From a virus: a stretch of DNA of 38,281 bases. Position 1 is the first letter of the stretch. Each line of letters begins with the position of its first letter. Shown piece by piece: positions 41 through 5,630 of the stretch. Location: UHGV virus genome UHGV-0173928; one strand, given 5' to 3'. The notes under the pieces are model-generated. The model saw nothing but the letters and a program-made list of their open reading frames with translations. It was not told where the DNA came from and searched no databases. The position numbers and the translations under genes were made by a program.

Positions 41-475
41 TTGGCAGCATCACCGGTTCTTGCCGGGCGCACCGATGAAGAGAAACAGGCCGACGCTGAT
101 CGGATAAACCTGGCCCTTGGCAACATCACGGAGGAAGAGATTGCCGCCAGAAACGAGAAACAAGAAGAGTTATCATCAATACAGGGTGATGCCACCAGCA
201 TAGCTCAGTCTCTTGGTCTGAATTATCGCGTATCCACCGCCGACCTGAAGATGATGTACGCACCAAAATTCGCCGCTGGCGAGGTATTTGGGCTTCAGGA
301 AGCCTCAGGCATGAAAGGCGTTCTTTTCCGTGCGAAAGACGCAATCAAGGCGAAATTCGGCGCTCGCTGGCTGCCAGCGAAGGCGAAGAACAGCGATTTC
401 CCGGGTAACTGGTGGATTATCGAGACAAAACACAACGTGGCGGACGTTCTGGCCGTCATCCAACAATACGCATAA
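41..475 (+). CDS. hypothetical protein (TTG start in ORF track; true start uncertain)
   Basis: Six-frame ORF of 144 codons; in-frame stop at 29-31 shows it is not a truncated upstream gene; no motif recognised; GC resembles the backbone. Confidence 0.3.
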   Translation: MAASPVLAGRTDEEKQADADRINLALGNITEEEIAARNEKQEELSSIQGDATSIAQSLGLNYRVSTADLKMMYAPKFAAGEVFGLQEASGMKGVLFRAKDAIKAKFGARWLPAKAKNSDFPGNWWIIETKHNVADVLAVIQQYA

Positions 476-508: not shown

Positions 509-949
509 ATGGCCACACTATCTGATACAATAAAACCGAATAAAACATATCTTGAGGCGGTACTCCGTACAGCGTTGTTAGGAAAGACAGAAGACGAATA
601 CGTTGATTTCTTCCTGTCAGGGCTACGCGGGCGATTACTGAAAAATCCCCGCCTGTACCGCAGCTATGGTCCATACTGGCCGGAAATTAAAAAATTATTA
701 CTGGAGCGCGGTTATGGTAATTTCGGTCGTCTCGTTGACCGTGACGTTCGCAAAATTTACCGTTATGACCGCCCGGCGCTAACACTCATAGCCGCGACGC
801 TCTACAGCCAGGAGCGTTTTGATAATGGTCAGATATACTCAGCCTGGCATTTACTGCCAGTGCCTGAAGAGGTTGACGACCAGGACTATGAGTTTGAGTC
901 TTACGATTTGGAAGTTGAAGCCTTAGCACAGGCTGGAGAGAAAACTTGA
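509..949 (+). CDS. hypothetical protein (occupies the position of P1 ulx, upstream of lxc)
   Basis: 146-aa ORF with ATG start; its stop overlaps the start of the next ORF (coupled); assignment by position only. Confidence 0.45.
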   Translation: MATLSDTIKPNKTYLEAVLRTALLGKTEDEYVDFFLSGLRGRLLKNPRLYRSYGPYWPEIKKLLLERGYGNFGRLVDRDVRKIYRYDRPALTLIAATLYSQERFDNGQIYSAWHLLPVPEEVDDQDYEFESYDLEVEALAQAGEKT

Positions 950-1194
950 AAAAGCGATACTACACAGTAAAGCATGGGACGCTACGAGCATTACAAGAGT
1001 TTGCTGACAAGCATAACGTTGAGGTGCGCAGGGAAGGGGGAAGTAAAGCTCTGCGCATGTACCGTCCGGACGGAAAATGGCGGACGGTCGTCGATTTCAA
1101 AACTAACAGCGTTCCCCAGGGCGTCCGCGATCGGGCATTCGAGGAATGGGAGCAGATCATCATAGATAACGCATTGCTCCTGAATGCTGATTAA
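946..1194 (+). CDS. small basic protein (position of P1 lxc/bof C1 co-repressor; identity not confirmed)
   Basis: 82-codon ORF with TTG start overlapping the previous stop; basic composition; no catalytic motif recognised. Confidence 0.35.
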   Translation: MKKRYYTVKHGTLRALQEFADKHNVEVRREGGSKALRMYRPDGKWRTVVDFKTNSVPQGVRDRAFEEWEQIIIDNALLLNAD

Positions 1195-1198
1195 GAAC

Positions 1199-1226
1199 TC
1201 TCCGGCCTAGGGAGATTAGGCCGGAG
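1199..1226. terminator. hairpin between convergent genes, candidate bidirectional terminator
   Basis: ctccggcctaggg agatt aggccggag inverted repeat followed by an A/T-rich tract, lying between the + strand ORF ending at 1194 and the - strand ORF ending at 1236. Confidence 0.45.
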
Positions 1227-1235
1227 ATAAATATA

Positions 1236-2540
1236 CTATATAAACTTAGATATAATATCGTGAATCTGTTGTAGCGGGATTTCTTCCATCTTACTCTTAA
1301 TAAGAGAGCGGTTAGATGCTGTCAGTGAAGGCCATTTTGTTTTCCAGGCTAGATATGCTCGCCATGAGTAGCCTGTTTCGTAAGGTTTATTCATATAAGT
1401 CATTGAGTGTTCAACCGCATGTATGTATTTTTTCTCAAAGTTGGTTCCTTTTACTTCAAATAAACTACCGAAATAAATAAGCCATTTTGCCAGGTGTTCA
1501 TACTGCTCCCATGCGCCAGACTCTTTAGTAAGATCTATTTTTTTATCTATTATATCACAAAAAACATTTAATACCTTTTCATCATTCCAGCTATATCCAG
1601 ATGATGAAATGGAGGAAATGATATGATAAAAAGAATCCTCTAACTTCAAGAACTCTATTTTATACTCTCTTCCGTTTTTTATTACCGATTTGATTGAGTG
1701 CCTCAATTTGTCTTTTATTTTTTTTGCTTCTGGAATTTTCTTGTTAAGTTTTCTAAAGAAATCAGACACCTCTGTTTTATCTATAACCCTAATCCCAAAG
1801 CAGGAAAAATAGTAATCTTTAATAGGTTGCAATAGTTTCCCTCGGGAAATAAGGAAAATATTGGAGGACATTACGTTGTCCCGTGAAAATACCTTATATT
1901 CATTTATAATCGCCTTGAGGTTCGCGTCACTTAGAGAATAGCCAAGAATAACAATAGTGTTTTCATGTAGAACTGTGCTTAGTTTATTTGAAAAGTAAGA
2001 ATTACCATTTATAAATCTGAAATAATCCTCGCTAGTAACAACCATATCTGATGGGGAGTCTATAGAGCCGTGAACATGGTAGACTTTAACCTCACAATTA
2101 TATTTTGGAATTGGCAGGCCGGGGGTGATTGTACACGTTCGATTCTCTCCAGCCAGTTTTTCTGCTAACTTGTCATAATTTGTCGTAATTACTTTAAATG
2201 TGTTTTCTTTGAAAAAGTCTTGAATATATTCAATTGATGGATCAAGTTCGATTGAGGCTATGATTTTCTCAATCTCCTGGTAAATATTTTTCCCCGAAAG
2301 TATAAATTTTAGTGCAATAACCTGAGCAGCCTCTTCAAGGCTAAGGTCTTTTGCTTTTCCATCAGGAAATAATTCCTCTTTGAGTGAGTCACCATCCTTC
2401 AATAAACCGCACAGTTGCTCCAATAAAGATTGCCAACTTGGGGCTTTATCATCAGAAACAGCCTTTGAAAATCCAGTGCCTGTAAGAAAGCACAGCCTAT
2501 GTGTAGCTGCTGCATAGGCAATTTCTATATACTCGCTCAT
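1236..2540 (-). CDS. SIR2-family (SIR2_2/DUF4020-type) putative NAD+-consuming defense protein with unassigned C-terminal domain
   Basis: N-terminal region carries the Rossmann G-x-G motif (CFLTGTGFS), TTNYD and VYHVHGS motifs and a GYSLSD motif, the hallmark set of defense-type SIR2 domains such as ThsA/DSR; gene is visibly AT-rich relative to its flanks. Confidence 0.8.
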   Translation of the reverse strand: MSEYIEIAYAAATHRLCFLTGTGFSKAVSDDKAPSWQSLLEQLCGLLKDGDSLKEELFPDGKAKDLSLEEAAQVIALKFILSGKNIYQEIEKIIASIELDPSIEYIQDFFKENTFKVITTNYDKLAEKLAGENRTCTITPGLPIPKYNCEVKVYHVHGSIDSPSDMVVTSEDYFRFINGNSYFSNKLSTVLHENTIVILGYSLSDANLKAIINEYKVFSRDNVMSSNIFLISRGKLLQPIKDYYFSCFGIRVIDKTEVSDFFRKLNKKIPEAKKIKDKLRHSIKSVIKNGREYKIEFLKLEDSFYHIISSISSSGYSWNDEKVLNVFCDIIDKKIDLTKESGAWEQYEHLAKWLIYFGSLFEVKGTNFEKKYIHAVEHSMTYMNKPYETGYSWRAYLAWKTKWPSLTASNRSLIKSKMEEIPLQQIHDIISKFI

Positions 2541-2596
2541 TACTTACTCCATTTACTTATAGTTCTACGGAGAAGTATACCCTAATGCATTGACGT

Positions 2597-3238
2597 TTAT
2601 AGATAATTTCCTTTTCCTGTTAATACTCCCTTAGGCACCTGTTTTTGTGCCAGCGTTTGGGTTCCGCGAATTATGTTAATCAGAGGGCTTAGTAACGATG
2701 GTTCCTGGCGTGCCTCAACTTCTCCAGCCATTGCCCTGATGTAGTCTGCGCTGGCAACGTTGTTGTATTCCGTCGCAAAGCAACATAGTAACGTCAGAAC
2801 ATGCTCTGTCGTTATTTCGCTCCAGTTGATGTTGAAAAATTCATCGCCTTTTTTGTCGTGTTCGGAATCGAAGATGCTTTGGTGGAGGATGTATTTGCCG
2901 GATTCCTTGCGCGGTAACTTGATTGCTTTCTGGCGTTCCAGCTCCTTATAAATCTGCATTGCCTCAATTAGTACCGGCCTGCCGTTCATGAAGGGATCGC
3001 GCAACCTTACACGCTGGCCAACTCGACCAGTAATAAAGCTGTTTTCCTCTTCCACCAGCACGATAAAACCCTTTTCCTCTTTTTCTCGCAATTCGCGCAG
3101 CAGCTGGAGTTCCATATCGCGACGGCGTTCAGGGTAGCTGGTCCGCTCAGCCATTATTAGCTCATTGTTGATCCATGCAGCAGTCATTGACGCCGGTTTG
3201 CCGACGCTCATCGAAACAACGCATATTTTCTTATCCAT
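2597..3238 (-). CDS. hypothetical protein at the position of P1 mat (particle maturation); ORF extends to a GTG at 3385
   Basis: ORF 2597-3385; internal ATG (MDKKICVV...) at 3236-3238 is the more plausible start; identity by synteny only. Confidence 0.4.
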   Translation of the reverse strand: MDKKICVVSMSVGKPASMTAAWINNELIMAERTSYPERRRDMELQLLRELREKEEKGFIVLVEEENSFITGRVGQRVRLRDPFMNGRPVLIEAMQIYKELERQKAIKLPRKESGKYILHQSIFDSEHDKKGDEFFNINWSEITTEHVLTLLCCFATEYNNVASADYIRAMAGEVEARQEPSLLSPLINIIRGTQTLAQKQVPKGVLTGKGNYL

Positions 3239-3427
3239 AGCGCCCCCTACAAAAAAGAAAAGCCACCAGCGGCGGCTTAGCAATACAACTGAAGGTAGCG
3301 CCCGGTACTCAGACTGTGCCGTCCATGGAATATTTGAAAAGGGATCCATCCGTACCGGGCATGTGATGATTCTGACTGAAGTCACTTGTCAGTTGTCAAT
3401 TATTTCAGATTAAAAATAATATATTTA

Positions 3428-3988
3428 TTAGTGCATGATGTTTGCCATCTCATAGGCGTCAGCCAGCAACTCCATCTCTGACTTGTTCAGCAAGGTGAAT
3501 TCTTTCTTGCCTCCAACCACACCATCGGCATGAACAGGGACCAGCCAGGGGTATTTTTCTCTTACTTCAGCCGGTGCTGCATGCTGGTGGTGCCATCTAC
3601 AAAGGGGCAATTGCTTTTTGTGACAACCCGGCGCGGTACGACCGGAGATATGGTGCAGAGATACCTCTTCAGATATTACTCCATGCATGTAGCAGGCAAT
3701 GCAGGGGAGAGCGCCAAGAGCATTGGCGATGCTCCGTTCCTCCGCTGTCGATGTTCGCCCCTTCAAGCCACGAGATTTTATCTTTACCGCACTTTTCCGC
3801 GTTTTGCTGGCTGGTGGGCGCTCTTTCTGTTTAGCGATACGGCGGACGATAGAATCCCGCATTTTCTGATATTGCGATTCTCGCCAGGCGGGGTCAGCCA
3901 ACTTTTCCCGTTGCCGAGCGATCGCTCGTTCTCTGGCTGCCTTCTGCCACTCGCGGCGCTGTTCAAGTTTTTGTTCGATTGTTTTCAT
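3428..3988 (-). CDS. ref: Ref, HNH-type recombination enhancement function
   Basis: 186 aa matching my recollection of P1 Ref in length and sequence, with Cys/His-rich HNH-like core (CIACY...CHKK...CRWHH) and basic N-terminus; located beside cre as in P1. Confidence 0.85.
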   Translation of the reverse strand: MKTIEQKLEQRREWQKAARERAIARQREKLADPAWRESQYQKMRDSIVRRIAKQKERPPASKTRKSAVKIKSRGLKGRTSTAEERSIANALGALPCIACYMHGVISEEVSLHHISGRTAPGCHKKQLPLCRWHHQHAAPAEVREKYPWLVPVHADGVVGGKKEFTLLNKSEMELLADAYEMANIMH

Positions 3989-4598: not shown

Positions 4599-5630
4599 CT
4601 AATCGCCATCTTCCAGCAGGCGCACCATTGCCCCCGTTTCACTATCCAGGTTACGGATATAGTTCATGACAATATTTACGTTGGTCCAGCCACCAGCTTG
4701 CATGATCTCCGGTATTGAAACTCCGGCGCGGGCCATATCTCGCGCGGCTCCGACACGGGCACTGTGTCCAGACCAGGCCAGGTATCTCTGACCAGAGTCA
4801 TCCTTAGCGCCGTAAATCAATCGATGAGTTGCTTCAAAAATCCCTTCCAGGGCGCGAGTTGATAGCTGGCTGGTGGCAGATGGCGCGGCAACACCATTTT
4901 TTCTGACACGGCAAAACAAGTAGTTATTCGGATCATCAGCCACACCAGAGACAGAAATCCATCGCTCAACCAGTTTAGTTACCCCCAGGCTAAGTGCCTT
5001 CTCTACACCAGCGGTGCTAACCAGCGTTTTCGTTCTGCCAATATGGATTAACATTCTCCCACCGTCAGTACGTGAGATATCTTTAACCCTGATCCTGGCA
5101 ATTTCTGCTATACGTAGCAGGGTATTATAAGCAATCCCAAGAAATGCCAGATTACGTATATCCTGGCAGCGATCGCTATTTTCCATGAGTGAACGAACCT
5201 GGTCGAAATCAGTGCGTTCGAACGCCAGTGCCTGTTTTGCACGTTCACCGGCATCAACGTTTTCTTTTCGGATCCGTCGCATGACCAGTGAAACAGCATT
5301 ACTGTCACTTGGTCGTGGCAGCCCGGACCGACGATGAAGCATGTTTAGCTGGCCCAAATGTTGCTGGATAGTTTTTACTGCCAGACCGCGCGCCTGAAGA
5401 TATAGAAGATAATCGCGAACATCTTCAGGTTCTGCGGGAAACCATTTCCGGTTATTCAACTTGCACCATGCCGCCCACGATCGGCAAACGGACAGAAGCA
5501 TTTTCCAGGTATGCTCAGAAAACGCCTGGCGATCCCTGAACATGTCCATCAGGTTCTTGCGAACCTCATCACTCGTTGCATCGACCGGTAATGCAGGCAA
5601 ATTTTGGTGTACGGTCAGTAAATTGGACAT
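4599..5630 (-). CDS. cre: Cre site-specific tyrosine recombinase
   Basis: 343-aa protein recognisable as P1 Cre (MSNLLTVHQNLPALPVDATSDEVRKNLMDMFRDRQAFSEHTWKMLLSVCRSWAAWCKLNNRKWFPAEPEDVRDYL...), with loxP about 420 bp upstream. Confidence 0.98.
   Translation of the reverse strand: MSNLLTVHQNLPALPVDATSDEVRKNLMDMFRDRQAFSEHTWKMLLSVCRSWAAWCKLNNRKWFPAEPEDVRDYLLYLQARGLAVKTIQQHLGQLNMLHRRSGLPRPSDSNAVSLVMRRIRKENVDAGERAKQALAFERTDFDQVRSLMENSDRCQDIRNLAFLGIAYNTLLRIAEIARIRVKDISRTDGGRMLIHIGRTKTLVSTAGVEKALSLGVTKLVERWISVSGVADDPNNYLFCRVRKNGVAAPSATSQLSTRALEGIFEATHRLIYGAKDDSGQRYLAWSGHSARVGAARDMARAGVSIPEIMQAGGWTNVNIVMNYIRNLDSETGAMVRLLEDGD

Follow-up and report, generated by a model that had tools for sequence, protein, structure and literature searches.

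The DNA analyzed here is a stretch of 38,281 nucleotides from the virus genome UHGV-0173928 (hereafter the window), a P1-like element recognized from its genes for Cre (4599..5630), ref (3428..3988) and mat (2597..3385). Between the convergent core genes lxc and mat, the window carries a single minus-strand gene that encodes a protein of 434 amino acids (aa), with a SIR2 domain in its N-terminal half and a predicted all-helical domain in its C-terminal half. An initial annotation, made from the letters alone, had described this open reading frame (ORF) at 1236-2540 as co-oriented with mat and ref and as AT-rich against GC-richer flanks. The ORF list contains the frame as described, and its GC content of 35.4%, against 47.3% in the rest of the window, is the lowest of 740 gene-sized segments in the 38 kb. 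The values run from 0.31 to 0.37 along the gene vs about 0.50 in both flanks, and no other gene-sized stretch of the window falls below 40% GC. The protein corresponds to the RefSeq entry WP_000006034.1, annotated as 'SIR2 family protein' with the PGAP product name 'SIR2 family NAD-dependent protein deacylase', and the coding sequence is identical to an annotated one in NZ_CP023961.1. The features of the gene and its slot are as follows.

1236..2540, minus strand: standalone SIR2 coding sequence, 434 aa, ATG start, stop codon at 1236-1238 (ORF list; N-termini of homologues align)
1770..2540, minus strand: predicted SIR2 (SIRim-type) NADase domain, residues 1-257, Rossmann-like alpha/beta (Pfam, profile, Foldseek)
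2472..2480, minus strand: codons of G21-T22-G23, glycine-rich NAD-binding loop (invariant in 43 family members)
2178..2180, minus strand: codon of Asn121 (TTNYD), predicted catalytic (invariant in the 43 sequences; aligns to DSR2 N133)
2070..2072, minus strand: codon of His157 (HVHGS), predicted catalytic (invariant in the 43 sequences; aligns to DSR2 H171)
1239..1769, minus strand: C-terminal all-helical domain, residues 258-434, short HEAT/ARM-like alpha-solenoid, proposed specificity or sensor domain (predicted fold)
2541..2596, minus strand: 56-bp leader from the mat stop codon to the SIR2 ATG, cassette-specific (absent from P1, RCS47 and 673R5)
2541..2577, minus strand: leader RNA hairpin whose 3′ arm holds the Shine-Dalgarno (SD) sequence, the anti-SD CUCC pairing with GGAG (free energy -10.4 kcal/mol)
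1199..1227, minus strand: terminator-like hairpin immediately past the SIR2 stop, where lxc and SIR2 converge, with an 11-bp stem containing seven G-C pairs
1195..2596, no strand: whole variable cargo slot as filled here, about 1.4 kb (BLASTN homology breakpoints)
946..1194, plus strand: lxc (bof), P1 core gene and left border of the slot (98% identity to P1 9750-9998, annotated lxc)
2597..3385, minus strand: mat (maturation control), P1 core gene and right border of the slot (94-98% identity to P1 and RCS47 mat)

The borders of the slot were obtained by BLASTN comparison of the window with P1 (NC_005856), RCS47 and vB_EcoM-673R5. Homology to the three stops at 1192-1208 and restarts at 2597-2601, and both breakpoints coincide with the stop codons of lxc and mat, so the cargo here amounts to about 1.4 kb, made up of the SIR2 gene with 56 bp upstream and 41 bp downstream. 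In P1, the slot holds the EcoP1I res-mod genes plus an IS5; the initial annotation had put the SIR2 gene in the place of res-mod, between mat and lxc, and the alignment to P1 confirms this placement. Both cargos are accessory, defence-type genes of a P1-like prophage-plasmid lying between the same two stop codons; they differ in the mechanism (predicted NAD+ depletion vs type III restriction), in size (one gene of 1.3 kb vs about 6 kb) and in orientation, the SIR2 gene being oriented with mat and EcoP1I res-mod with lxc. The slot is empty in RCS47, while in 673R5 it contains a split, toxSAS-like RelA/SpoT gene resembling PDC-S33 (L003:2704-3803), whose two ORFs are possibly the result of a frameshift. 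In JL22, it contains a PIN-domain (PIN_12) gene with a PDC-S34-like tail (L061:1398-2348), and in Ro157c2YLVW an AraC-type regulator with an EAL-domain protein (L063:1380-2954). With at least five different contents among P1-like phages, the slot is the variable defence locus that had been proposed. Its other contents are mostly of the defence type, namely type III restriction-modification, PIN (PDC-S34-like) and RelA/SpoT (PDC-S33-like), and none of the cargos of JL22, 673R5 and Ro157c2YLVW appears to have been characterized previously. In Salmonella phage SJ46 (L064, record 60500-67000), a block of Tn1721 and IS903 with blaCTX-M-27 replaces mat together with the slot and directly adjoins ref, and the same region therefore also accepts resistance cargo. 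CapRel of SJ46, considered as a further occupant of the slot, was dropped, since the region beside ref in SJ46 consists of the transposons with blaCTX-M-27.

The only noteworthy Pfam assignment of the 434-aa protein was SIR2_2 (PF13289), which the initial annotation had expected and which matched residues 117-245 at E=1.6e-23 (83.8 bits vs a gathering cut-off of 24.5). The four SIR2 motifs that it had quoted were found in the translation as CFLTGTGFS (residues 17-25), TTNYD (119-123), VYHVHGS (153-159) and GYSLSD (200-205), and all of them are invariant or nearly so in an alignment of 43 family sequences. In a profile alignment with PDB entries, residues 12-257 of the family align to DSR2 residues 38-273 (E=2e-11), and the counterpart of His157 is DSR2 H171, whose mutation gave the inactive DSR2(H171A) of the deposited structures. 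The AlphaFold model of the whole protein (predicted local distance difference test (pLDDT) 83, predicted template modelling score 0.74) shows a Rossmann-type N-half and an all-helical C-half, with AF2 pLDDT values mostly >85 in the SIR2 domain, and Foldseek ranked DSR2 first (E=5e-12), followed by ThsA and KomC. The best PADLOC matches cover the SIR2 core only and were PDC-S25, ThsA, SIR2-type LmuA and Dsr2, all of which are NADase effectors. By these results, the N-terminal half belongs to the SIR2_2 domains of the defence type and is nearest to those of DSR2 and ThsA. Asn121 and His157 are the predicted catalytic residues, and NAD+ glycohydrolase activity is predicted for the protein.

The C-terminal domain comprises about 180 aa, which are predicted to form about four helical hairpins. 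No SLOG, Macro or other known sensor domain was found in it, as had been noted for SLOG from the letters, and the domain alone gave no match in PADLOC, Pfam or NCBIfam and none to the Dsr2 models at E≤10. Across the family, the mean pairwise identity is 70% in the SIR2 domain and 56% in the C-terminal domain. Ten C-terminal residues, W344, Q346, Y347, W353, S392, W393, W399, W403, N410 and R411, are invariant in the 43-sequence alignment, and the domain is, as judged from this alignment, strongly constrained despite its divergence.

The allele of the window was detected on 65 PLSDB plasmids (IncY, P1-like) and in 69 of the 5,426 complete E. coli genomes (1.3%), while neither megablast nor tblastn at full length matched the SIR2 gene in any of 50,697 GenBank phage records. 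Of the IMG/VR loci, all contigs that have P1 core genes carry a SIR2 gene in exactly the same place and orientation, with differing alleles. Three kinds of alleles were observed in the slot: that of the window, one that is 96% identical (L070-L073, L077), and a group B (L079, L093, L094) whose proteins of 435 aa are 59% identical to that of the window. Cre, Mat, Lxc and Ulx are 98-100% identical across the loci with differing SIR2 alleles. Group B was found on about 57 further plasmids, so that, together with the 65 plasmids of the window allele, about 122 (26%) of the 472 plasmids carrying the ref-mat backbone have a SIR2 gene of this family; EcoP1I res was detected on 108 plasmids, 48 of them at ≥99% identity. 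This allelic series (100%, 96% and 59% identity) of the family in one P1 slot is new. In two P1-like IMG/VR contigs (L076:3509-4297 and L081:6001-7002), the best SIR2 match is partial at 99-100% identity, suggesting copies that are frameshifted, interrupted or affected by assembly errors.

The ratio of non-synonymous to synonymous substitution rates (dN/dS) was calculated by Nei-Gojobori counting separately for residues 1-230 and 231-434, and the two halves were compared by the Fisher test. The 100% and 96% alleles differ by 16 amino acids, 15 of which lie at residue 231 or beyond. Residues 1-230 have 11 synonymous and one non-synonymous change (dN/dS 0.02), against three synonymous and 16 non-synonymous changes in residues 231-434 (dN/dS 1.33), a contrast with a Fisher P=9e-5; a second 96% allele gave 0.00 vs 0.69, again with P=9e-5. 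In group B, the pair L079 and L094 has 68 differing residues, 60 of which lie past residue 210, with a dN/dS of 0.05 vs 0.14 (P=1e-6), and the synonymous rate of this pair differs between the halves (0.61 vs 1.5), which indicates a recombinant mosaic. L093 and L094 differ at six residues, all past residue 240. Positive selection on the C-terminal half is likely, a grade set by the small counts for the recent allele pair. A conserved enzyme joined to a fast-changing, recombining second domain is what one would expect if an immune effector carried a sensor that determines its specificity.

The leader between mat and the SIR2 ATG contains the palindrome AATGCATT, a -10-like TATACT and the SD sequence GGAG (2547-2550). 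It is 96-100% identical (zero to two base differences) in all 18 P1-slot copies, the 59% alleles included, and is better conserved than the adjoining end of mat (90-93% identical), with identity dropping to 70% exactly at the SIR2 ATG; it was not found with family members outside P1. Its hairpin scores z -2.8 to -3.3 against shuffled sequences, and the lone group-B substitution changes a G.U pair to A-U and so keeps the stem. The hairpin would hide the ribosome-binding site and probably damps the translation of a toxic enzyme. Neither a C1 operator nor a late-promoter -22 box of the LPmat type was detected in the leader. At the other end of the gene, the hairpin at 1199-1227 has a free energy of -20.8 kcal/mol and a z of -4.7, none of 200 shuffles folding as well, and the group-B alleles carry a different hairpin at the same position after the stop codon. 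Inside the gene, an inverted repeat GCCTATG...CATAGGC of 7-9 bp (window 2495-2519, codons 8-16) lies in a conserved AYAAAT motif and forms a potential mRNA hairpin about 20 nt past the ATG; it may be a coincidence of the protein motif.

The family is large. A word-indexed search returned 665 matches, which all have about 434 aa and full-length identities of 55-61%, and an exhaustive search returned 1,018 representative clusters at E≤1e-10, the matches over both domains, in proteins of 430-500 aa, extending as far as E of about 1e-24. The SIR2 domain is N-terminal in every full-length relative of this representative search, and the family occurs in Gamma-, Beta-, Alpha- and Deltaproteobacteria, Actinobacteria and Firmicutes. 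Mobile elements are frequent carriers of the family: IMG/VR viral contigs contain 29 full-length members, and PHROGs lists the family as phrog_7567 without an assigned function. The neighbours were examined in two ways, by clustering all ORFs within 4 kb at 51 loci from four phyla and by Pfam scans of the two nearest genes on either side at about 49 loci. No family of neighbouring ORFs was present in more than four of the 51 loci, no Pfam family beside the gene in more than two of the approximately 49 on either side, and no cas family recurred in the latter set. A two-gene system with a partner was therefore rejected, and the protein is a single-gene module. This extends the earlier remark that no TIR or HerA partner is adjacent: no TIR, HerA, pAgo or SMC gene adjoins the SIR2 gene in the window, and none of the 51 other loci points to a conserved partner. 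HerA/DUF87 was found near the gene in a single locus of Halomonas, about 2.6 kb downstream within a larger island.

Several of these loci deserve description. In Halomonas daqingensis (L004, 1100-11700), the member lies in a one-directional cluster with HNH nucleases, DUF4145, HSDR_N, proteins of unknown type and a DUF87 (HerA-like) ATPase, which looks like a defence island. At two of the approximately 49 loci (alignment A4), genes with a TIR domain (TIR_2, E=2e-29) were observed within two genes downstream; their proximity may reflect no more than clustering in defence islands, or else a Thoeris-like pairing that occurs now and then. On E. coli chromosomes (L007-L010, 6001-7311), a 56%-identical member, P0083, directly follows an integrase at a prophage edge, so that, with the P1 slot, E. 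coli has the family on at least two kinds of mobile elements. P0083 is neighboured by a response-regulator gene (Response_reg/GerE) and cytochrome c maturation (Ccm) genes, followed in one strain by an AIDA-type autotransporter gene.

Among the known systems, the protein is most similar to DSR2 of Bacillus subtilis (PDB 8k98 and 8wkt, among others), which gave the best match both in sequence and in structure. Like DSR2, it is a single protein with an N-terminal SIR2 domain that keeps the catalytic Asn and His. Outside the catalytic domain, both have an alpha-helical HEAT-like repeat, with which DSR2 senses a structural protein of the phage; DSR2 is activated by tail tube protein and inhibited by DSAD1. 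Unlike DSR2, it has 434 aa vs about 1,005, in keeping with the initial description of it as far shorter than the DSR proteins, it is without the linker/helical-bundle MID, and it has about four helical hairpins vs eleven, while its C-terminal domain has no sequence or specific structural likeness to any part of DSR2. The Dsr2 equivalog NF041819 reached 30.6 bits vs a cut-off of 1,400, at profile positions 116-213 of 1,215 only, and the DSR1 equivalog NF041818 reached 21.2 bits vs the same cut-off of 1,400. A separate search with the SIR2 domain of DSR2 retrieved no full-length DSR2, just proteins of 308-387 aa (P0305-P0310) that are 45-80% identical and lie on contigs of 1-4 kb; these may be gene fragments or genuinely short DSR2-like proteins.

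A closer parallel in size is sole-Sir2, a standalone protein of about 440 aa encoded in type I-C cas operons between cas3 and cas5c under crlRNA control, which turns NAD+ into ADP-ribose (ADPR) in vitro; protection of E. coli against T2 and T4 is reported there for a close homologue without a link to CRISPR (bioRxiv 10.1101/2024.12.27.630466). The two are alike in being partner-less proteins of about 440 aa that combine a DSR2-like Sir2 domain with a second domain unlike DSR2, which the authors of the preprint propose as a sensor, and they are unlike in that no cas family recurs beside the family loci scanned here. Ten distant family members that were sampled include Firmicutes, with no Neisseria or cas context among them. 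The protein may be the same as sole-Sir2, the comparison being by description alone, as the preprint text comes without sequences or accessions. PDC-S25, a candidate single-gene system of PADLOC, was the best model of the defence library (E=5e-24) and is also a single SIR2 protein, but only the SIR2 core aligns, at profile positions 127-283 of 517. The LmuA-SIR2 model of Lamassu likewise matches the SIR2 core only (E=2e-13), and no SMC-like LmuB neighbours the gene. The adjacent HerA-type ATPase that characterizes SIR2-HerA (Nezha/GAO_19) was not found in the window, and for SPARSA there was no APAZ or PIWI match in the protein or the window and no conserved neighbour. No literature description was found that cites WP_000006034 or calls the P1 slot a SIR2 hotspot, nor was one found for PDC-S25 or for Punavirus with SIR2. 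A small standalone SIR2 protein for defence has already been put forward in a preprint, and the allelic series, the concentration of change in the C-half and the invariant leader are what add interest. The novelty suggested at the outset was therefore set too high, a standalone sole-Sir2 of this size with NADase activity being already in the preprint; nor is the gene rare, given the number of plasmids and E. coli genomes with the same allele and the existing RefSeq and PHROGs entries.

The remaining features of this end of the window are the following.

54..475: 3′ end of darB
509..949: ulx, left of lxc
3428..3988, minus strand: ref, co-oriented with the SIR2 gene (Pfam RecA_dep_nuc, E=1e-49)
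4599..5630: gene for Cre, P1-like marker

Positions 1-54 of the window match the end of IS1 at 100% identity. The darB frame begins abruptly behind them and retains only about the last 140 codons, whereas the plasmid NZ_CP023961.1, identical in other respects, has an intact darB of 6.8 kb; in the present element, IS1 therefore appears to have interrupted this anti-restriction gene. The P1 C1-operator consensus ATTGCTCTAATAAATTT has ten matches with ≤3 mismatches in the window (4089, 4565, 6127, 6210, 6674, 10948, 18869, 18918, 22542 and 25665), vs 0.19 expected by chance. Rfam and tRNA scans of the whole window found nothing.

All points of the initial annotation that computation can check were borne out. 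Taken together, we consider it fairly probable that the gene encodes a single-protein anti-phage abortive-infection NADase with a C-terminal specificity domain, a compact analogue of DSR2, its defence function being read from the sequence. The N-terminal SIR2 domain (residues 1-257, with Asn121 and His157), once activated, would hydrolyse NAD+, and the loss of NAD+ would starve the infected cell along with the invading phage. The C-terminal HEAT-like repeat of about 180 aa would be the regulatory or specificity module and would most likely recognize a phage protein by direct contact, much as DSR2 recognizes the tail tube protein with its far longer HEAT-like domain; recognition might then release the SIR2 domains or assemble them into an active state. 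In the lxc-mat slot, the gene would replace EcoP1I as one of several interchangeable cargos, protecting the lysogen, and hence the plasmid, against other phages, and alleles with different C-terminal halves would be maintained in the P1 population. The conserved leader hairpin over the ribosome-binding site probably holds synthesis of the enzyme low.

Some observations weigh against this interpretation. The leader has no sigma-70 promoter scoring ≥9/12, the best candidate by eye being the TATACT with a weak -35 (8/12), and since the gene lies directly past mat, whose promoters in P1 are C1-repressed or late, its expression in the lysogen is uncertain. Many of the non-P1 loci have ordinary housekeeping neighbours and are not obvious defence islands. 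The CRISPR-linked versions of sole-Sir2 were unprotective against the phages tried, and the preprint puts the Sir2 domain at the C-terminus, vs the N-terminus here (bioRxiv 10.1101/2024.12.27.630466); this wording of the domain order may be an error.

A more far-reaching version of the anti-phage interpretation can be offered only tentatively. The slot would be dedicated to a balanced polymorphism, in which one SIR2 NADase chassis is combined with an undescribed helical-repeat family that senses phage proteins directly, the C-half being diversified by positive selection as well as recombination and all alleles sharing a common damped leader.

The position of the gene also allows a different explanation, which we regard as unlikely, namely that the protein serves the phage and not host defence, being co-transcribed with mat and acting in P1 induction or lytic growth. 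It might, for example, exclude co-infecting phages, shut down the host by removing NAD+ or counter an NAD+-dependent host defence. The main basis for this explanation is possible read-through from C1-controlled or late promoters: the SIR2 gene lies 56 bp downstream of mat in the same orientation, a terminator scan of 2541-2600 found no terminator-like site between them, no consensus promoter of its own was seen, and Omat, Pmat and LPmat are conserved as in P1 (region 96% identical; LPmat box at 3369-3387). The conserved leader likewise suggests regulation tied to the P1 backbone, and the neighbouring ulx and darB have anti-restriction functions. A role in the P1 cycle is hard to reconcile with the occurrence of the family as an orphan gene in many chromosomes and in non-P1 prophages without mat; moreover, the slot otherwise holds defence-type cargo acting in the lysogen, such as EcoP1I, and a receptor that follows variable foreign proteins would be expected to show such C-terminal diversification between alleles.

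What the SIR2 domain does with NAD+ may also be questioned. Some SIR2-fold enzymes ADP-ribosylate targets (PMC9503650), and the domain could be an ADP-ribosyltransferase acting on a specific host or phage protein or nucleic acid, with the helical domain picking the substrate, as a helical-repeat domain is a typical substrate-binding scaffold. Given that the nearest characterized relatives, DSR2, ThsA and KomC, are NAD+ hydrolases, and that sole-Sir2 made ADPR from NAD+ without an added target, we regard this activity as quite improbable.

Comparison with Thoeris bears on a further explanation, in which the protein would be an orphan, ThsA-like effector triggered by the small-molecule signal of a sensor encoded elsewhere, the helical domain being the ligand receptor. 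ThsA has a related SIR2 core (PADLOC E=7e-18; PDB 6lhx E=8e-11) and a similar overall length, its models are among the best matches of the SIR2 core, and TIR genes lie just downstream at the two loci mentioned above. The ThsA models, however, align only to residues 117-236; where ThsA has a C-terminal SLOG/STALD or Macro domain, the protein has a predicted all-helical solenoid that matches no ThsA model, and an alpha-solenoid would be an unusual nucleotide receptor. ThsA also depends on an adjacent TIR-domain ThsB, whereas the gene stands alone in the P1 slot between the core genes lxc and mat, and no TIR or cyclase partner is conserved in the family. We consider this explanation very unlikely.

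A housekeeping NAD-dependent protein deacylase, as the PGAP name has it, is scarcely credible, because the protein has no CxxC zinc module (its cysteines are at 17, 44, 136, 149, 247 and 328) and is thus, despite that name, not a classical deacylase, lacking the CxxC...CxxC module of CobB-type sirtuins and matching SIR2_2 and no classical sirtuin family in the Pfam search, all its close relatives are immune NADases, and the gene is a variable, AT-rich mobile-element cargo in just 1.3% of the complete E. coli genomes.

P1 is a textbook phage and a major vehicle of resistance genes in Enterobacteriaceae, and its reference genome displays just one of the cargos of the slot. In public plasmids, the SIR2 family is at least as common there as EcoP1I (about 122 vs 48-108 of the 472 plasmids), and P1-type lysogens may thus often alter which phages infect E. 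coli, which is of relevance to phage therapy and to the spread of P1-type plasmids. With 434 aa and a sensor of 180 aa, the protein would be a much simpler model for SIR2 NADase activation than the 1,005-aa DSR2, and the natural alleles, which differ almost only in the C-half, form a ready set of specificity variants. If the more far-reaching version given above is true, no smaller SIR2 immune receptor with direct sensing would be known, and the alleles of the slot would offer a tractable natural series for the evolution of receptor specificity.

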